Origin: Elusimicrobiota bacterium
GTDB taxonomy: Bacteria > Elusimicrobiota > Elusimicrobia > UBA1565 > UBA9628
Direction: 5' to 3'
Assembly: GCA_016212855.1 (NCBI GenBank)
Contig: JACRDP010000003.1
Span: forward strand, 29,283 to 93,282
DNA: 64,000 bases
In this document: piece by piece, positions 3,001-56,982 of the stretch
Layout: each line of letters opens with the position of its first letter
How positions within the stretch are numbered: position 1 is the first letter of the stretch
The notes under the pieces: model-generated
Database searches by the model: none
The model's input: the letters and a program-made list of their open reading frames with translations, nothing else
Told to the model about the DNA's origin: nothing
Translations under genes and position numbers: made by a program

Positions 3001-3487
3001 CGTGCCCGTCAACAAGGTGACGATCATCCCGCACGGCTCGGGCGCGCTCGGCTTCGCCGAGTCCGGCTCCGAAGAGGGCGACAAGTACCTCTACACGCGC
3101 GCCGAGCTCGAGGCCCGACTCGATACCGCGCTCGGCGGCCTCGTCGCCGAGAAGATCTACTACGGCGAGTGGTCCACCGGCCCGGGCTCGGACCTCGAGC
3201 AGGCGACGCGCGTGGCGCGGGCGATGGTGCAGCAGCTCGGCATGAGCGAGGAGATGGGACTCGCGCAGACCGCGCCGAACCAGTACGGGCAGAGCCCGTT
3301 CGGAAGCGAGACCGACGCGAGAGCTCTCGTCGAGATCAACAAGCTGCTCGCGGCGTCGAAGGCGCGCGTCGAGAAGCGCCTGGCCGAGAACAAGGACAAG
3401 TTCGAGGCGCTCGTCGCCGCGCTGGTCGAGAAGGAGACGCTCTCCTCCGACGAGATCATGGCGATCCTGCACCCGAAACCGAAATAG
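29..3487 (+). CDS. ftsH: FtsH-type AAA+ zinc metalloprotease with ~550-aa N-terminal extension. The ORF is open to the window edge, so the 5' end may lie upstream.
   Basis: The C-terminal ~600 aa carry Walker A GPPGTGKT, Walker B IIFIDEID, the TRPGRFDR second region of homology and the HEVGH zinc site. Two TM helices (aa ~570-590 and ~665-685) precede the AAA module as in FtsH. The upstream part adds a multi-TM block (aa ~180-365), a Pro/Lys linker and a HEAT-like segment ([16 protein letters not shown]). Confidence 0.85.
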
Positions 3488-45318: not shown

Positions 45319-45816
45319 TCAGGCCGGCACGGTGCGCGCGCGACGGCCGAGCTCGCGCAACAGACCCGCCGGAAGGCGGGCGCGCAGCTCCGGGAACACG
45401 ACGTTCTCCTCGTAGACCATATGCGCCTCCAGCTCCTCGCACAGGCGGGAGAGAACGGTGCGCAGGCGGTACACGTGCTCGCCGTCGCCGCTGGCGGCGA
45501 CGGCGCCGAAGAGCTTCGTCATCTCCATGACGGCGCGGTGTCCTTCCTCGATGGCCGCGGACAACGCGGGGTCCATCCCGGCTTGGCGCAGCACCCGCGT
45601 CAAATACGCGTCCTCCATGGCCTCGTGAGCCTTGAACTCCGTGAAGAAGCGGTCCAGCGCGCGCGCGAACAGCTTGCGGTCCGCCGTCGCGCGATCATCC
45701 CACCCGATCCCGCTGGGGCGGTCGATCAGGACGGTCAGAAACGCGAGCGTGCCGCGGAGCTTTCCGTGGCCTTCGAGCAGGCGGTCGATGATATCCATGT
45801 GCCTCCGGACGGGCAT
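45319..45816 (-). CDS. Hemerythrin-like (HHE cation-binding) domain protein
   Basis: Spaced H/E pattern (HGKL..., FKAHEAMED, IEEGHRAV, LEAHMVYEE). The start was chosen at the ATG that coincides with the predicted sigma-54 +1. Longer starts (45864, 46011) overlap the divergent promoter. Confidence 0.6.
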   Translation of the reverse strand: MPVRRHMDIIDRLLEGHGKLRGTLAFLTVLIDRPSGIGWDDRATADRKLFARALDRFFTEFKAHEAMEDAYLTRVLRQAGMDPALSAAIEEGHRAVMEMTKLFGAVAASGDGEHVYRLRTVLSRLCEELEAHMVYEENVVFPELRARLPAGLLRELGRRARTVPA

Positions 45817-45826
45817 CGGGACGGGG

Positions 45827-45842
45827 CGCAACGCTTCGTCCA
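45827..45842 (-). promoter_or_regulatory. Sigma-54-type promoter TGGACGAAGCGTTGCG (hemerythrin)
   Basis: The -12 C (45828) is 12 nt before ATG 45816. Confidence 0.5.
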
Positions 45843-45852
45843 ACGCGACGAT

Positions 45853-45868
45853 TGGCCGGTTCATTGCA
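45853..45868 (+). promoter_or_regulatory. Sigma-54-type promoter TGGCCGGTTCATTGCA (PAS-GGDEF)
   Basis: Near-consensus motif. The -12 C (45867) is 14 nt before GTG 45881. Confidence 0.65.
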
Positions 45869-45880
45869 CACCCGCAGGGC

Positions 45881-46921
45881 GTGAGCCAGGCGGATTTTCC
45901 GGCGCTGTCCATCTCTGCGTGGCAGGTCATCCAGGCCATGCGCGACGGCGTCGTGCTCACCGACCCGCGCGGCTCGATCATGGCCGTCAACGACGTCTTC
46001 TGCGCCGTCACCGGCTACGCGCGGGACGAAGTCATGGGACGAAACCCCCGCCTCCTCCATTCGGGAAGGCACGATCACGCTTTCTACTGCCGCCTGTGGT
46101 CCGACGTCCTGAAAACCGGCGTCTGGCAGGGCGAGATATGGAACCGGCGGAAAAACGGCGAGATCTACCCGGAATGGCTCACGATCAGCTCGATCAAAGA
46201 CGCGTGGGGACACACCCGCTGCTATCTCGGGGTTTTCCGCGACATCACGAGCCCGAAGCTCGATGAAGAACGGCTCAAGCATCTGGCGCAGTACGACGCT
46301 CTCACGAGCTTGCCCAATCGCCGCACCTTCACCGAACGGCTCAAGCGCGTCCTGGCGAACCGTCCGGCGCAGCATCGGCTCGGCATCCTCTTTCTCGACC
46401 TCGACCATTTCAAGGACATCAACGACCGGTGGAGCCACAGCGCGGGCGACGCGTTCCTGCAGGCGGTCGGCGCGCGCCTGCGCTCCTGCGTGCGGCGCAG
46501 CGACTACACGGCGCGCTGGGCGGGAGACGAGTTCGCCGTCCTGCTCCACCCCGTCGCCGGGCGCCGGGGCGCCGCGCGCGTCGCGGCGAAAATACTGCGC
46601 GCCCTGCGGCGGCCGTTCAGCGTTCTGGGCCGCCGGACCAAGATCTCCGCCAGCGTCGGCGTCTGCCTGTACAACGGCGAGGGCTCGGCGGAACGGCTGA
46701 TCGACCGGGCGGACCGGGCGATGTACGCGGTCAAGGAAAAGGGGCGCAACGACGTCGGCTTCTGGTCCTCGGCCGTTTCGTTGCGGCGTCGTTCGGCGAC
46801 CCCTCAGAGAGGGGCCGCCGCAAAGGACGTAAAGAAGGACCGGAACACGCCGCAGGCCCGGACAGGGATGGGGTCCATGAGACGGCGATCCGGAGTTCGT
46901 AAAGGGCCGAGCGGTTCGTAG
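45881..46921 (+). CDS. PAS-GGDEF diguanylate cyclase (motif reads AGDEF). The C-terminal ~55 codons run through the next promoter and leader.
   Basis: PAS region (VLTDPRGSIMAVNDVFCAVTGYARDEV) and GGDEF domain (LFLDLDHFKDINDRWSHSAGD, RWAGDEFAVLL, DRADRAMYAVKEKGRN). Alternative start ATG 45938. Confidence 0.85.
   Translation: MSQADFPALSISAWQVIQAMRDGVVLTDPRGSIMAVNDVFCAVTGYARDEVMGRNPRLLHSGRHDHAFYCRLWSDVLKTGVWQGEIWNRRKNGEIYPEWLTISSIKDAWGHTRCYLGVFRDITSPKLDEERLKHLAQYDALTSLPNRRTFTERLKRVLANRPAQHRLGILFLDLDHFKDINDRWSHSAGDAFLQAVGARLRSCVRRSDYTARWAGDEFAVLLHPVAGRRGAARVAAKILRALRRPFSVLGRRTKISASVGVCLYNGEGSAERLIDRADRAMYAVKEKGRNDVGFWSSAVSLRRRSATPQRGAAAKDVKKDRNTPQARTGMGSMRRRSGVRKGPSGS
46770..46785 (+). promoter_or_regulatory. 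Sigma-54-type promoter CGGCCGTTTCGTTGCG (leader copy 1)
   Basis: Correct GG/GC spacing. Predicted +1 near 46796, 156 nt before ATG 46952. Confidence 0.55.
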
Positions 46922-46951
46922 CCGCCCGGCCTTCCTTTTGGAGCGTTGGAC
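46796..46951 (+). promoter_or_regulatory. Structured 5' leader, copy 1 (candidate riboswitch or attenuator) ending in an intrinsic terminator
   Basis: Hairpin cccctc-aga-gagggg, then the conserved module 46848-46939 shared with 47697-47790 and 55348-55442. The terminator is gggccgagcgg/ccgcccggcc plus ttcctttt (46904-46939). Confidence 0.6.
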
Positions 46952-47581
46952 ATGAGACATCCGTACGCCTACGAGCACGGGAACAATCTCTACGTCAACC
47001 TGACGTCTCTGTGTCCGACCGACTGCGTCTTCTGTCCGAAGCGCGAGTCCGGGCGGCGTTTCCGCGGGCACGACCTCTCGCTCGACGGCGAGCCGGAGCT
47101 CGACGAGATTTGGGCCGACGTGCTCGAGCGCGCCGCGCGACGCTCGTACAGCGAGTTCGTCTTCTGCGGCTACGGCGAGAGCACGTACCGGCTCGACGCG
47201 ATCACCCAGCTCAGCGAGCGCATGAAGAAGTTCTTCCCGCGCAGCGGCCGCCGCCTGAACACGATCGGCCTCGGCAGCATGATTTGGGGACGAGACATCG
47301 TCCCGGAACTGGCCGAGTCGCTGACGAACGTCAGCGTCAGCCTCAATACGGCCGATCCGCGGCAGTGGCGGCGGCTGCACCGGCCGCGCCCCGAGATGCG
47401 CGCGGGAGGCTTCGAGGGAGCGCTCGAATTCGTGCGCTCCTGCGTTCTGTCCGATCTGCGCGCGACGGTGACCGCCGTCGAACTCCCGGGCGTGGATCTG
47501 CCCGCGGTCGAGAGGCTCGCGCGCTCGCTCGGAGCGGAATTCGCCGTGCGCCCCCGGCTGACGGCCGCCGAGACGAGCTGA
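46952..47581 (+). CDS. Small radical-SAM protein
   Basis: CPTDCVFC is the CX3CX2C 4Fe-4S/SAM motif near the N-terminus. GGAG lies 8 nt before ATG 46952 (the ORF track starts at TTG 46946). Confidence 0.75.
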   Translation: MRHPYAYEHGNNLYVNLTSLCPTDCVFCPKRESGRRFRGHDLSLDGEPELDEIWADVLERAARRSYSEFVFCGYGESTYRLDAITQLSERMKKFFPRSGRRLNTIGLGSMIWGRDIVPELAESLTNVSVSLNTADPRQWRRLHRPRPEMRAGGFEGALEFVRSCVLSDLRATVTAVELPGVDLPAVERLARSLGAEFAVRPRLTAAETS

Positions 47582-47596
47582 GACGTTTTGTTGCGG
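47581..47596 (+). promoter_or_regulatory. Degenerate sigma-54-like element GAGACGTTTTGTTGCG (leader copy 2)
   Basis: The -12 half is conserved, but the -24 position reads AG instead of GG. Confidence 0.3.
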
Positions 47597-47606
47597 CATT
47601 GAGGGC

Positions 47607-47790
47607 GCCGAGGGACAATCAGGGGTGAGCCCCCTCCCCGGCACCCAAGGCCCTCTCAGAGAGAGGGCGCCGGAAAGACGGCGTCGGACCGGAAACTGCC
47701 GCGGGCCCGGACAGGAACGGGGTCCTTGAGACGGCGATCCGGAGTGAGTAAAGGGCCGAGCGGTTCGTAGCCGCCCGGCCTTCCTTTTTT
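47607..47790 (+). promoter_or_regulatory. Structured leader, copy 2 (longest version) ending in an intrinsic terminator
   Basis: Extra hairpins agggg-tgag-cccct and ccctctc-aga-gagaggg, then the conserved module 47697-47790. The terminator stem at 47753-47782 is followed by a U-tract (tt cc tttttt). Confidence 0.6.
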
Positions 47791-47802
47791 CCCCGCCCCC
47801 CC

Positions 47803-47818
47803 CGGCCGAAACGTTGCG
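47803..47818 (+). promoter_or_regulatory. Sigma-54-type promoter CGGCCGAAACGTTGCG (methyltransferase)
   Basis: Located just 3' of the copy-2 terminator. The -12 C (47817) is 13 nt before GTG 47830. Confidence 0.55.
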
Positions 47819-47829
47819 GTCAGTGCTGC

Positions 47830-49026
47830 GTGAAGAAGACCATGCAAACCGTCGTTTCCCCGGGCGTCGGCAACACCCGCTCCGAGGCCTTCGTCAACGT
47901 CGCCGACCGCAACACCTACGCGTGGTGGGCGATTCTTCTGGCCTCGGTGGCCCTCGCCGGAACGGTGGGCCCGCTCGGCGGCTTCTTCTGGGTCGCCGCG
48001 CTCGCTCTCGACGACGTTCTCCTCTGGGGGTTCGGAAAATCCCTCCTGTTCGATTCGCAGCTGCGGGTGCGCCGCAACTACCAGTGGATACACAATCTGT
48101 ACGACGGCACCACGGGAGCCGGCCGTGACCTGGGCTTCAACCTGCTGACCGGCGGCCGCCTGTCCCAGCGCGCGAAGTACGAGCACATGGCCAAGGCGCT
48201 CGGCCTGCGTAAGGGCATGCGCATCTGCGACGTCGGCTGCGGATACGGCGACTGGCTCCGGTATTGCCGCGAAGAGCTCGGCTGCGAGGCCGTGGGGATC
48301 AACCTGACGCCCGAGCAGGCCGCCTACGCCCGCCGCGAGTACGGCCTCGAGGTGCACACGACGAACTGGAAGGACATCCCCGGCGATACGCTCCTCCGGG
48401 CGAGGCTGTACGGCCGCTTCGACGCCGTCACCTTCATGGACACCGTCGAGCACTACGTCAGCATGGAGGACCGCGACGATCTCCCCAAGCAGCGCGCGAT
48501 CTACTCCGACATGTGCCGGCTGGCCGCGGACCTGATCGACCCGAATTCCCCTTCGGGGCGTGTGTTCGTCTCCTGCCTGCACCAGACGCGCAGGCCGCGC
48601 GGCTGGAAGTTCTATTGGCACGCCTACTTCATGGACAAGATGTACTCCGGCCATTATCCCTTCGTCGACGAAGGCCCGCTCGCGGCGTGCCGGCCCTGGT
48701 TCGACGTGCTGGACATCGAGGACCGGACCGAGGACTACCGGCTGACCGGCGTCGTGGACCGCAGCCACTTCCAGGCCGTGTCCGTCCGGCCGACGCCGCG
48801 CAAAGCGGCGTACGCGGCCGCCCTGATGCTCCTCGATCCGCACGTCCTGCACCGGCTGATGTACTACGCCTGCGACTCCTGGATGTTCTTCTACGGCGAC
48901 GACCCTTACAGCCCGGAGTACGATCCGGAGCGCCGCCGGAAAACGAGCTACGTCCTGCTCTACTGGATCACGTTGGAGCTGAAGCGAGGAGGACGTCATG
49001 GGCGCGCCATTTCCGCACCGCTATGA
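47830..49026 (+). CDS. SAM-dependent methyltransferase, cyclopropane-fatty-acid/mycolic-acid synthase family, with an N-terminal TM segment
   Basis: SAM motif I ICDVGCGYGDW and CMAS-like length and layout. Alternative start ATG 47842. Confidence 0.8.
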   Translation: MKKTMQTVVSPGVGNTRSEAFVNVADRNTYAWWAILLASVALAGTVGPLGGFFWVAALALDDVLLWGFGKSLLFDSQLRVRRNYQWIHNLYDGTTGAGRDLGFNLLTGGRLSQRAKYEHMAKALGLRKGMRICDVGCGYGDWLRYCREELGCEAVGINLTPEQAAYARREYGLEVHTTNWKDIPGDTLLRARLYGRFDAVTFMDTVEHYVSMEDRDDLPKQRAIYSDMCRLAADLIDPNSPSGRVFVSCLHQTRRPRGWKFYWHAYFMDKMYSGHYPFVDEGPLAACRPWFDVLDIEDRTEDYRLTGVVDRSHFQAVSVRPTPRKAAYAAALMLLDPHVLHRLMYYACDSWMFFYGDDPYSPEYDPERRRKTSYVLLYWITLELKRGGRHGRAISAPL

Positions 49027-53617: not shown

Positions 53618-55300
53618 ATGGGCGGTCTCGCGGTCCTGGGACGGACCTACCGTCACCTGAACAGGTACCGCGAGGTCGCCGCGATCCTCACCAAGCACGG
53701 CTTCGGGGATTTGTTGCACGTCCTGAAACTCGACTCGCATCTCGAGGCCGGCTTGCACGCCGTCATGAAGCATCCGCCCGTGGACGCCGCCTCGCGCCCC
53801 GAGCGCGTACGTCTGGCGATCCAGGAGTTGGGCACCACCTTCGTGAAGGCCGGCCAATACCTCTCGACGCGCTCCGATCTGCTCGCTCCGGAGTACCTGC
53901 GCGAGCTGGCCAAGCTCCAGGACCGCGTGCCGCCCTTCCCCGGCTCCGAGGCCCGCCATGCCGTCGAAAAGGAGCTGGGCGCGCCGCTCTCCCGGCATTT
54001 CTCCCGCTTCGACCTCCACCCGCTGGCCGCCGCCTCGATCGCGCAGATCCACGCGGCCGCGCTGCGCGACGGCCGCGAGGTCGTCGTCAAGGTCCTGCGG
54101 CCCGACGTCCGCCGCCTCGTCGCCGTGGACCTCGAGATCATGACGCACCTGGCGGGGCTCGCCGAGAAGCATCTCGAGGCGTGGCGCCCGCGCCGGCCCA
54201 AAGCCGTGGTCGCCGAGATCGCCCGCTCGCTCGACCGTGAAATGGATCTGTCGATGGAGGCGGCGCACACCGAGCGCTTCGCCCGGCAGTTCGCCGACGA
54301 CGCGACCGTGCGCGTTCCCGCGACGCACCGCGCCCTGAGCTCCGCCCAAATTCTGACGCTCGAACGCCTGGACGGGGTCAAGCCGGGAAGCGCCCGCGCG
54401 CTCGAACGCGCGGGGCTCGATCCGCGCGTCGCGGCCGAACGGCTGGCCGCCCATTATCTCGCGATGATCTTCACTCACGGCTTTTTCCACGCCGACCCGC
54501 ACCCGGGGAACATCCTGGTCCAGCCGGACCACGTGATCGCCTATCTCGATTTCGGCATGATGGGACGACTCGACCGGGGGTCGCGCGAGGCGTTGGCCGA
54601 CGTCGTCTTCGCGCTCTCCGAGCGGGACGAGGCCCGGCTCGCGCGCGCGCTGCTCGCGCTCGCGGACAAAAACGACGAGCCGGATCCGCACGCCTTCGAG
54701 GCCGACATGGCCGAGCTCATGGACCAGTACGCCTACCGTCCCCTCTCGGAGTGGCGGCTCGGGCGCATGCTCGAGCAGCTGTTTCAAACCACGGCCAGGC
54801 ACGACGTGCGCATACCGCCGGATCTCTTCCTGATGGTCAAGGCGCTGACCGAACTCGAGAGCCTCGCGCTGCTCCTTGATCCCCGCTTCGACGCCGTCAC
54901 CGCCTGCGCTCCCTTCGTCCGTCGCGTGCATGAGGAGCGCGCGTCTCCCGCCCGCCTCACGGAGCGCCTGACGCAGGCCGGACGCGAGACGCTGAATCTG
55001 CTGGCCTCGGCTCCCGGCGAACTGCGCGCGCTGATCCAAGCGGCACGCCGAGGCCGCCTGCTCATCGAGTTCGAGCACAAGGGGCTCGAGCCGACGCTCG
55101 CCGAACTCGATCAGATCAGCAACCGGCTCGCCTTCGCGGTTCTGCTGGGCTCGCTGGTGATCGGCTCCGCTCTGCTCGTACACTCGGGCCTGCCGCCGCA
55201 CTGGCGCGGGATGCCGGTCCTGGGCCTGGCCGGCTTTCTGCTCTCCGCGCTGATGGCGTTCTGGCTCCTGCTCGCCATACTCCGGCACGGACGCCTCTGA
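53618..55300 (+). CDS. ubiB: ABC1/UbiB-family atypical kinase
   Basis: FVKAGQYLSTRSDLL, AAASIAQIH and HADPHPGNIL motifs, with C-terminal TM helices. Confidence 0.85.
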   Translation: MGGLAVLGRTYRHLNRYREVAAILTKHGFGDLLHVLKLDSHLEAGLHAVMKHPPVDAASRPERVRLAIQELGTTFVKAGQYLSTRSDLLAPEYLRELAKLQDRVPPFPGSEARHAVEKELGAPLSRHFSRFDLHPLAAASIAQIHAAALRDGREVVVKVLRPDVRRLVAVDLEIMTHLAGLAEKHLEAWRPRRPKAVVAEIARSLDREMDLSMEAAHTERFARQFADDATVRVPATHRALSSAQILTLERLDGVKPGSARALERAGLDPRVAAERLAAHYLAMIFTHGFFHADPHPGNILVQPDHVIAYLDFGMMGRLDRGSREALADVVFALSERDEARLARALLALADKNDEPDPHAFEADMAELMDQYAYRPLSEWRLGRMLEQLFQTTARHDVRIPPDLFLMVKALTELESLALLLDPRFDAVTACAPFVRRVHEERASPARLTERLTQAGRETLNLLASAPGELRALIQAARRGRLLIEFEHKGLEPTLAELDQISNRLAFAVLLGSLVIGSALLVHSGLPPHWRGMPVLGLAGFLLSALMAFWLLLAILRHGRL

Positions 55301-55320
55301 CGGACGCCCTGGACGCGCCG

Positions 55321-55336
55321 AGGCCGTATTGTTGCG
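55321..55336 (+). promoter_or_regulatory. Sigma-54-type promoter AGGCCGTATTGTTGCG (leader copy 3)
   Basis: Correct spacing. Predicted +1 near 55347. Confidence 0.5.
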
Positions 55337-55346
55337 ACATCGTTGG

Positions 55347-55481
55347 GCGCCGCAGGGCCCGGACAAGAGCCGGGCCCGTCAGTCGGCGATCCGGAGCGAC
55401 GCAAAGGGCCGAGCGGTTTCGCGACCGCCCGGCCTTCCTTTGCTCGCCGGCGCGGCCGGTCCGGTATCCAATGGGGGCGAA
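55347..55481 (+). promoter_or_regulatory. Structured leader, copy 3 (minimal version) with an intrinsic terminator
   Basis: Helix cgccg (55348-52) / cggcg (55384-88) encloses the hairpin gggcccgg-acaagag-ccgggccc. The tail tccgg is complementary to ccgga. The terminator is at 55406-55442. Confidence 0.6.
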
Positions 55482-56060
55482 ATGCGCATATTCCGGAACA
55501 TGTTCGAAGCCTGGAGAACTTACCCGAACGCCGTCGTCGCCCTCGGAAAGTTCGACGCGATCCACCGCGGCCACAAGCGGGTGCTGCGCCTGGCCGTCCG
55601 GAAGGCGAAGGCGTTCAAGACCTTCTGCCTCGTCGTCACCTTCGATCCGTCCGCCGAGCAATATCTTCGTCTCTATCCCAGCCGGCCGGTGCTGACCATG
55701 GCCGAGCGCATCGCGTTGCTCGGCAAGCTCGGCGTCGACGGCGTGGTGCTGCTCCCTTTCGACAAGAAGCTGGCCTGCCTGTCTCCCGAGGCGTTCGCCA
55801 AGGACGTCCTCGCCCTTCAGCTCAAGCCGATGGCGGTGTGCGTGGGCGAGGATTTCTGCTTCGGCAAGAACCGCGCCGGCAGGGTCGCGACGCTCCAGGA
55901 GCTCGGCCCCGAGCTCGGCTTCCTCGTCTATCCGGTGCCGCTGCTGTCCGCCGGCGGAGAGAAGATCAGCGCGACGCGCATACGGACCTTGCTCGAACGG
56001 GGGCGCAAAGCCGAAGCCGAAGCGCTTCTCGGGCGGAAGCTCCGGTCCGCCCCCGTCTAA
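55482..56060 (+). CDS. FAD-synthetase-like FMN adenylyltransferase domain protein (no riboflavin kinase domain)
   Basis: ALGKFDAIHRGHKRVL matches the RibF N-terminal nucleotidyltransferase motif. 192 aa only. Confidence 0.7.
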   Translation: MRIFRNMFEAWRTYPNAVVALGKFDAIHRGHKRVLRLAVRKAKAFKTFCLVVTFDPSAEQYLRLYPSRPVLTMAERIALLGKLGVDGVVLLPFDKKLACLSPEAFAKDVLALQLKPMAVCVGEDFCFGKNRAGRVATLQELGPELGFLVYPVPLLSAGGEKISATRIRTLLERGRKAEAEALLGRKLRSAPV

Positions 56061-56121
56061 TACAACCGGTCGAAGACGATGCGGCAGACCAGAGCGCCCA
56101 GCGACGCGGCCGGGAGCCCGG

Positions 56122-56982
56122 TCATTTTCGACTTATGGGAGAGCCTTCATGAATCCGCAAGGCGAAATGCGCGCTCTCCAACGCGGGTACGGACAGAACC
56201 GGGACCGGCGAGCGCCGGAGCACCTGCTCCAACGTCGTTCCGAAGAACGCCTCTTTAAAAGGCGCTTTCTCATGCGAGACGAGGACGATCCAGTCATGCC
56301 CCCTCTGCGCTTTCAAGATCGACTTCACCGCCGTGCCGGTGAACTCCTGAGCCGTCGGGCGGCAGTTCTCACGCAGCTTCGCGGGCAGGTGATGGATGAG
56401 GTTCGACAGGCGGTAGCGCGGATTCCCCTCCCAGATCGGATCGACGGTCGCGTGCAGAGCCGTCAGCTGAGCCGAAAGCACGGCCGACGCCGCGGCGGCG
56501 TAGGCGAAGCCGTAATCCGAATACGGCGTGAAGTTGACGGGGGCCAGGATCGAACGGACCGGGCGCACGGGACCGCGCGCGGCAAGAACGGGCACCGAGG
56601 ATCCGCGGATCACGGTCTCGGCGACGGAGCCCAGGATGGCGCGTTCAAAGCCCTTGCGTCCGTGCGTGCCGACGACGATCAGCTGCGGACGATGCAACCG
56701 GGCCAGGCTCAGAATACGTCCGGCCGGATCGCCTTGCAGGATCGTGATTTTCGGGCCGTCGCCGACGGCGGCGCGGATTTTCGCGCGCAACGAGCGCGCC
56801 TCGGCCGGCGTCAGGCGCGGCGGAGGCATCAAATCGACGCCCGCGCCCCACGGCTGGACGAACACCGCCTCGAGCTCGGCGCCGCAGTCCGCGGCGAGCG
56901 CGACCGCGTGCCGCCACGCGATCCGGGAGACGTCCGACAAATCGTAAGCGACGAGGATTTTCTTCGGCGGAAATTGAATCAT
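56122..56982 (-). CDS. Universal stress protein, tandem USP domains
   Basis: Two UspA halves (VGTHGRKGFERAILGSVAE). Confidence 0.8.
   Translation of the reverse strand: MIQFPPKKILVAYDLSDVSRIAWRHAVALAADCGAELEAVFVQPWGAGVDLMPPPRLTPAEARSLRAKIRAAVGDGPKITILQGDPAGRILSLARLHRPQLIVVGTHGRKGFERAILGSVAETVIRGSSVPVLAARGPVRPVRSILAPVNFTPYSDYGFAYAAAASAVLSAQLTALHATVDPIWEGNPRYRLSNLIHHLPAKLRENCRPTAQEFTGTAVKSILKAQRGHDWIVLVSHEKAPFKEAFFGTTLEQVLRRSPVPVLSVPALESAHFALRIHEGSPISRK

Follow-up and report, generated by a model that had tools for sequence, protein, structure and literature searches.

A genus-specific RNA family of Elusimicrobiota, with a truncated copy in front of a stand-alone FMN adenylyltransferase gene

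The small RNAs Qrr1-5 of Vibrio are sigma-54/LuxO-dependent and are found as multiple paralogues (PMC3730234, bioRxiv 10.1101/2021.07.01.450815). We have analyzed a stretch of 64,000 nucleotides (the window) from an uncultured groundwater Elusimicrobiota, whose genome is 2.5 Mb long and 73% complete, and that carries three copies of a structured RNA element. By analogy, and with no homology implied, multi-copy sigma-54-dependent small RNAs such as Qrr would be its closest functional analogues. In both cases the RNAs are short and structured, there are several paralogues per genome, and every copy comes with a -24/-12 promoter and a Rho-independent terminator of its own (predicted from sequence in the new family). 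Besides, both seem tied to their regulon through an NtrC-type activator, in our case because genes for such activators adjoin the clusters of the FMN adenylyltransferase (FMNAT) gene in relatives. On the other hand, sequence and structure are unlike, there was no Rfam match to Qrr (RF00378) or to any other family, and some copies of the new family, the third one of the window included, are joined to a protein gene at its 5' end.

The protein gene behind this third copy has described counterparts too. The FMNAT module of the FAD synthase of C. ammoniagenes (CaFADS, 2x0k), for which the roles of the catalytic and flavin-binding residues are known (PMC7279473), has the same fold as our 192-aa protein, the same HRGH, GxD/N and SxTxxR motifs and the same aromatic flavin pocket. 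The difference is that our protein stops exactly at the domain boundary, with no riboflavin kinase module, and is encoded apart from the kinase as an accessory gene under a stress-type promoter motif. Stand-alone N-terminal-only sequences of this kind were among the <5% atypical ones left out of a survey of FAD synthetases in prokaryotes (Frago et al., 2008, PMC2573891), which agrees with the original prediction that the layout is uncommon. The survey did not report their lineage, context or regulation, whereas here we deal with a conserved orthologue group of Elusimicrobiota (~58 clusters at 90% identity) in a taxonomic family that does not have the fused form. What is new is an undescribed RNA family found in a truncated, gene-fused state, together with a split and partly lost RibF; the functional steps that would connect them are those that we infer below.

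Copy 3 occupies positions 55347-55442 of the plus strand and was recognized by a covariance model of the three copies in the window with a score of 113 bits (E 3.7e-30, searching the 2.5-Mb genome). It is preceded by a sigma-54-type -24/-12 motif, AGGCCGTATTGTTGCG, at 55321-55336 (GG at 55322-23 and GC at 55334-35), and its transcript is predicted to start near 55347. Both the minimum free energy (MFE) and the centroid fold contain a helix P1 (CGCCG at 55348-55352 with CGGCG at 55384-55388) and an 8-bp helix P2 (GGGCCCGG at 55355-55362 with CCGGGCCC at 55370-55377), closed by the loop ACAAGAG (55363-55369) and separated from the outer helix by an asymmetric internal loop inside P1 (55353-54 and 55378-83). 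The tail AUCCGGAG (55389-55396; 55389-55405 with the linker) leads to an intrinsic-terminator-like hairpin at 55406-55442, in which GGGCCGAGCGG (55406-55416) pairs with CCGCCCGGCC (55425-55434) over 10 bp with a conserved A.C mismatch and a loop at 55417-24, followed by UUCCUUUG (55435-55442). Folded alone this hairpin has -22.1 kcal/mol; a simple terminator scan did not call it because of the A.C mismatch. When the whole RNA was folded from 55347, exactly P1, P2 and the terminator were recovered, with -55.2 kcal/mol and z = -2.8 (3 of 200 shuffles folded as stably). Sequence and fold are thus in agreement with the layout of about 95 nt that had been proposed for this element (outer helix, 8-bp hairpin, ACAAGAG loop, tail and terminator). 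Between the terminator and the start codon there is a spacer of 39 nt (55443-55481), with GGGGG at 55472-76 as likely ribosome-binding site. We found no -24/-12 motif in this spacer, and a motif scan of 55200-56200 gave no sigma-70-type match.

The other two copies of the window, located by repeat finding, are full length and score 140 bits each, and copy 3 is confirmed as a third, weaker copy of the same element. Copy 1 (46826-46945, plus strand, promoter motif at 46770-46785) precedes a TatD-linked radical SAM gene that starts with the ATG at 46953, with no second promoter between them. Copy 2 (47675-47794, plus strand, weak promoter motif at 47580-47595) is separated from the next gene, for a CMAS-like methyltransferase, by a second -24/-12 motif (47803-47818). 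Apart from these three, nothing of comparable covariance-model strength was found in the host genome. In a search of 401 genomes of the phylum the matches were confined to the genus of the window, where the element is present in 13 of 38 genomes with one to three copies each. Adding metagenome and GTDB contigs to the genomes of the genus we have collected 22 members. Rfam 15, run on the whole window at gathering threshold, detected two tRNAs only, and permissive scans of 55250-55550 and 46760-47830 gave asX1 as best match, with 19 bits where the threshold is 70, and otherwise noise. The RNA family is therefore undescribed and genus-specific, and matches no Rfam family. A pattern scan also produced ~40 hits in other GC-rich phyla, all of them rejected by the covariance model as chance matches.

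The full-length members share one order of parts: the -24/-12 promoter, one or two accessory hairpins, a P0-P1-P2 hairpin and the intrinsic terminator. P0 is formed by a CCGGAA box located after the accessory hairpins, paired with the tail AUCCGG, and it stacks on P1 and P2 to make a single long imperfect hairpin next to the terminator. In an alignment of 15 sequences, 94% of the cells at the pairing positions are paired. The P0 pair at columns 20/64 appears as A-U, G-C and U-A, in P1 a C-G pair is replaced by U-A, a compensatory change, and one pair of P2 is found as G-U, G-C or A-U. Double-sided changes affect only three pairs among these 15 sequences (in P0, P1 and the terminator), a modest and shallow covariation that is due to the youth of the family. 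We also considered a pseudoknot between the tail AUCCGG and a CCGGA in the P2 loop, and dropped it because half of the family has CCAGA in this loop; it is the P0 pairing that shows covariation instead.

The promoter motif, GG(C/A)CG-N5-TTGCG, is found at a fixed distance upstream of all the members examined except the weakest one (L188), with the -24 GG reading AG in four members. The host genome encodes RpoN-type DNA-binding domains. The same motif is also upstream of the FMNAT gene in all 13 orthologue lineages examined. Nine of these lineages do not have the RNA, and their motif is located 14-95 nt from the start: in eight the start codon comes 14-45 nt after the -12 C, and L182, the ninth, has another leader and a distance of ~95 nt. 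In the four others (our own locus, L040, L039 and L181) the RNA sits between the motif and the start codon, and there is no second motif. Actually, the stand-alone FMNAT is always found among genes of the sigma-54 stress type (CBS, YtxH, hemerythrin, USP, PAS-GGDEF and the activator). We infer from these motifs and neighborhoods that the RNA family belongs to a sigma-54-type stress regulon.

The original prediction had described copy 3 as a leader, and we have examined the context of all 22 members with regard to this point. In 10 of them a second -24/-12 motif is found within ~20 nt of the terminator and would serve the next gene, which codes for the methyltransferase in copy 2 and elsewhere for coxIII, PAS, LAB_N, hsp20 (twice), rSAM, a beta-CASP RNase, clpB and usp. 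Three more (L072, L182 and L188) face a convergent gene after the terminator. For these 13 members, control of the next gene by the RNA can therefore be dismissed. An ORF located 8-50 nt past the terminator with no promoter motif, that is, a 5'-UTR position for the RNA, is found only in copy 3 and five other members (copy 1, L040, L039, L181 and L081), while the context of L008, L084 and L057 is ambiguous. Nor do the downstream genes have a shared metabolic theme, as FMNAT, a radical SAM protein and a lipoprotein have to be added to those just mentioned. Such a context indicates that the family consists mainly of stand-alone small-RNA genes and argues against a metabolite riboswitch family, so that the leader-type description does not hold for the element in general. 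The quality of the U-tract did not clearly set the members that have a second promoter apart from those that do not. In a tblastn search of the 73%-complete host genome with Hfq of E. coli and CsrA of E. coli and B. subtilis nothing appeared below E 0.1; the usual partners of a trans-acting RNA are therefore missing, and the lack of an Hfq match is a further difference from Qrr. The idea of a CsrA sponge was also discarded, given the weak enrichment of GGA motifs (~7 in copy 2 against ~3 expected) and the lack of a CsrA gene.

Considered by itself, copy 3 does look like a terminator-type riboswitch or attenuator leader, with a structured 5' domain, an intrinsic terminator and, just past it, the ribosome-binding site of a gene in the same orientation. 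It is also possible to draw an alternative, mutually exclusive pairing between the 5' strand of P1-P2, GCCGCAGGGCC, and the terminator's 5' arm. P1-P2 would then bind a small molecule or a protein, and the core, when not stabilized, would turn into this antiterminator and allow the transcription of FMNAT. With the 3' arm of the terminator left out of the fold, the alternative pairing is actually the MFE structure of copy 3 (-36.5 kcal/mol versus -26.9 for P1-P2 alone), and the same happens in 6 of the 13 other members folded (7 of 14 overall). The complete RNA of copy 3 folds, as said above, with P1, P2 and the terminator. The bases of the loop, internal loop and tail are 100% conserved with respect to L040, which fits a binding surface, and the stem of the terminator is conserved in sequence beyond what pairing requires, which would suit a stem with two possible partners. 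Five members are found just downstream of PAS-GGDEF genes (in two of them, GGDEF-type C-terminal genes), a hint of a link to a second messenger. However, half of the members folded, the most divergent ones included, are not predicted to form the alternative pairing, and pairings of this kind arise easily by chance given the GC-rich GGCCC repeats. The kinetics are not favorable either, since P1-P2 would be complete well before the competing strand and the 3' arm of the terminator follows within ~10 nt. Together with the 13 members whose next gene is beyond control, the mixture of downstream genes and the lack of a consistent gene association or of any match to a known aptamer class (in Rfam even at E<1, noise aside), this makes a regulated switch unlikely. 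Less likely still is a P1-P2 core that works as a sensor, of a second messenger or of a dedicated protein, gating the read-through of the terminator, which would amount to a new class of attenuator. If it were true, the stand-alone copies would be decoys or small RNAs and copy 3 would directly control FAD synthesis under stress.

The truncated form of copy 3 was then compared with its closest relatives. As predicted, it is a minimal copy: the accessory 5' hairpins are missing in copy 3 and in L040 only, out of the 22 members. L040 is its twin in a close relative (FMNAT 95% identical), and L039 is a full-length copy before a FMNAT gene that is 81% identical. Neither copy 3 nor L040 has the upstream CCGGAA box and hence the 5' strand of P0, so their tail, which is the 3' strand of P0 in the full-length copies, has lost its partner. 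Besides, the internal loop of copy 3 reads CAGU in place of the otherwise conserved GAGA, the P2 loop, where the family conserves RGAY, differs and P2 is lengthened. Aligned with L039, copy 3 and L040 show one clean gap of ~92 nt, with GGCGCC just past the promoter at one edge and ACGCC at P1 at the other. A clean gap between GCGCC-like repeats is best read as a deletion, which would have joined the promoter directly to P1. Copy 3 thus appears to be a derived deletion product and not the ancestral core, contrary to the suggestion that it defined the functional core of the element.

A truncated copy could also be a decaying relic, non-functional or at most serving as terminator of the UbiB gene located upstream, whose stop codon is only 21 nt before the beginning of copy 3. 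The loss of P0 and of the accessory domain and the departure of the internal loop from the consensus of the family would be in keeping with this. The comparison with L040 points in the opposite direction. None of the 88 core bases (P1, P2, loops, tail, linker, terminator stem and U-tract) has changed, 32 unpaired ones included, while the flanking genes diverge by 25% at third codon positions (46/186 and 26/103). With a neutral divergence of 18-25%, the probability of such identity under neutrality is ~1e-8 to 1e-11. The differences start right outside the core: 6 of the 8 bases of the terminator loop have changed in spite of the identical stem, and the spacer is 82% identical (7/39 differ) against 100% for the RNA. 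Judging from these substitution patterns, copy 3 is clearly maintained by selection, and a relic is very improbable.

The position of copy 3 has consequences for the expression of FMNAT. As there is no recognizable promoter between the terminator and the ATG, FMNAT is probably dependent on read-through of the terminator. The reading that we favor, with a probability of about 0.5, is that copy 3 is a 5'-truncated paralogue that acts as a default-off attenuator and also yields a short RNA. The terminated product would be a ~95-nt RNA from 55347 to about 55442, which might have some function in trans, and the FMNAT mRNA would be the read-through fraction of the transcripts started at 55347. The element would work in cis, setting the amount of FMNAT once the sigma-54 activator fires. 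A promoter of another kind may be located within the 39-nt spacer, and transcription from the upstream UbiB gene could enter copy 3.

Most members of the family behave as independent units, and copy 3 could be one more of them, a small-RNA gene producing only its short RNA, with FMNAT transcribed from its own unrecognized promoter and the adjacency being incidental. Two members are indeed found near FMNAT without leading it, one convergent with it (L182) and the other 450 nt downstream (L092). Still, we find this reading doubtful. The room left for such a promoter is the 39 nt from the U-tract to the ATG, free of -24/-12 and sigma-70 matches as described above, and while every other FMNAT orthologue is served by a -24/-12 motif, the only one available here is that of the element. 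Furthermore, the order promoter-RNA-gene, uninterrupted by a second promoter, is found in four separate FMNAT lineages. The different states found in the family (stand-alone, with a second promoter and gene-fused) would represent a natural series for the conversion between a small-RNA gene and a 5' leader, in a promoter-RNA-terminator unit that appears young and mobile and seems to be spreading within one genus of Elusimicrobiota.

We have also examined the gene itself (55482-56060, plus strand). Its 192-aa product contains only the Pfam domain FAD_syn (PF06574; 134 bits versus a cut-off of 27, E 5e-39), which is the N-terminal module of FAD synthases, and a Pfam search found no Flavokinase domain, as anticipated when the gene was described as the nucleotidyltransferase half of RibF. 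Against the profile of the bifunctional RibF (TIGR00083) the score was 103 bits, under the cut-off of 184, and covered profile positions 2-167 only. The protein aligns to residues 14-186 of CaFADS, which correspond precisely to its FMNAT module, with 32-33% identity, and its AlphaFold model (pLDDT 88) gave TM values of 0.82-0.85 to 2x0k, 3zug and related entries. The motifs HRGH, GxD and SATRIR are kept, and so are H28, H31, D124 (N125 in CaFADS) and the S/T/R motif, with Y61, F105 and F127 corresponding to F62, Y106 and F128 of CaFADS. In 27 orthologues H28, H31, D124, F105 and R168 are invariant and F127 is nearly so. The orthologue group is made of proteins of 141-223 aa, nearly all of 179-223, that are 52-95% identical and clearly apart from the bifunctional RibF, with which identity is 47% at most. 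A metagenome scan for further orthologues gave at least two useful loci, the rest of the matches listed being mostly bifunctional RibF at 35-40%. The substitutions with respect to L040 are distributed as 11:5:46 over the codon positions. By sequence and model the 192-aa protein is the product of a functional gene, intact and with a conserved orthologue group, and not a truncated pseudogene, an outcome that the original prediction had left to be checked. That prediction had also asked which nucleotide cofactor was being made. Since all the ATP- and flavin-binding residues are kept, the product should be FAD, and the question seems to have an ordinary answer.

The kinase half is encoded elsewhere. 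We found no full-length ribF in the host genome (73% complete), and the sole Flavokinase domain belongs to a 121-aa gene that overlaps the end of truB, at the usual infB-rbfA-truB-ribF position, and that matches positions 171-284 of TIGR00083. The separately encoded riboflavin kinase would supply the FMN that the FMNAT then converts to FAD. Full-length ribF is present in nearly all the genomes of the phylum, whereas all the members of the taxonomic family of the window score for the kinase half only. Within the genus the kinase was found in 38 of 38 genomes, always as a stand-alone ORF of ~120 aa, and any FAD_syn domain in 4 of 38. The stand-alone FMNAT is best described, from this distribution, as an accessory gene, in a taxonomic family from which the FMNAT half of RibF has disappeared. 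FAD synthesis would then be placed in a sigma-54-type regulon with USP, Hsp20, CBS, hemerythrin and ClpB, and not in the kinase-fused housekeeping arrangement.

In the 34 other genomes of the genus there is no recognizable FAD synthase. Together with the loss of the FMNAT half throughout the family, this points to an as yet unidentified FAD-forming enzyme or to FAD salvage. A literature search gave no article on how Elusimicrobia make their flavin cofactors. The search for an alternative FAD synthase in the host genome gave no clear RibL; the nearest candidates were a NadD-HD fusion, an HldE-like cytidylyltransferase-PfkB fusion and a 157-aa RfaE-domain-II-like protein. As to the locus, a search of sequencing runs detected its sequence only in the source groundwater DNA runs.

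The stand-alone riboflavin kinase of the genome containing the window (GCA_016212855.1) is a protein of 121 aa, encoded outside the window at C9:86946-87311 (1492-1857 of locus L020), where the gene overlaps the truB stop codon. It occupies the infB-rbfA-truB position, the usual site of ribF. This kinase-only gene is characteristic of the whole taxonomic family, and full-length ribF is found in the remainder of the phylum. We found a riboflavin kinase in the absence of a FAD_syn domain in 34 of the 38 genomes of the genus. Among those more than 90% complete, 19 of 21 had the kinase without any FAD_syn domain.

A candidate for the missing FMN adenylyltransferase (FMNAT) is a nucleotidyltransferase of 157 aa resembling RfaE domain II, located in the same genome at C15:40694-40981 (loci L023/L176). 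Its score of 160 bits was slightly below the cut-off of 181. The genome has a separate cytidylyltransferase-PfkB kinase fusion of 529 aa (C20:107393-107665, L177), by which heptose activation could already be covered.

We have also examined the surroundings of the stand-alone FMNAT gene in related genomes. In three loci (L092, L171 and L025) the gene has a leaderless spacing, with its start 14 nt after the -24/-12 motif. Within the window, a second motif of this type, GGCCGAAACGTTGC, is located 3' of copy 2 of the RNA family and is followed after 12 nt by a GTG (motif and GTG region, 47803-47830), a distance consistent with this leaderless spacing. In L092, a fragment of 104 aa resembling the N-terminus of lactate/malate dehydrogenases (3094-3408), probably a gene remnant, lies between the FMNAT and a full-length RNA copy; a PAS-GGDEF gene is found farther upstream, ahead of the FMNAT. 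Another locus, L182, has a different FMNAT leader of ca. 95 nt (about 730-820) after its -24/-12 motif, with a perfect hairpin CCCGGCCCGGAUCCGGGCCGGG and without terminator. Here a full RNA copy is found on the opposite strand, convergent with the 3' end of the FMNAT.

The terminator stem of copy 3 contains an A.C mismatch (window 55412/55429). Comparing the same columns in 15 members, we found it retained in nearly all of them, and displaced by one position in the GGACGG variants. One further locus, L019 (G264:C9:21987-22089), shares with the family its promoter motif and its kind of terminator, here GGGCCGGGCGG...CCGCCCGGCC with one stem base changed, but the middle part is unrelated to the family RNA. 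This suggests that promoter and terminator form a modular cassette common to more than one RNA. In the genome of the window, a lone terminator hairpin without P1-P2 (C24:69178-69214, L004), probably the leftover of a lost copy, lies 5' of a PAS gene; the orthologue of this gene in genome G387 is located downstream of a complete element (L009).

Within the window, a PAS-GGDEF ORF (45632-46921) on paper spans the promoter motif and the entire RNA element of copy 1, its first stop being the TAG at 46919-46921, in the loop of the terminator of this copy. In three more loci (L039, L072/L010 and L187), a PAS-GGDEF gene, or one with a GGDEF-type C-terminus, ends shortly 5' of a family member.
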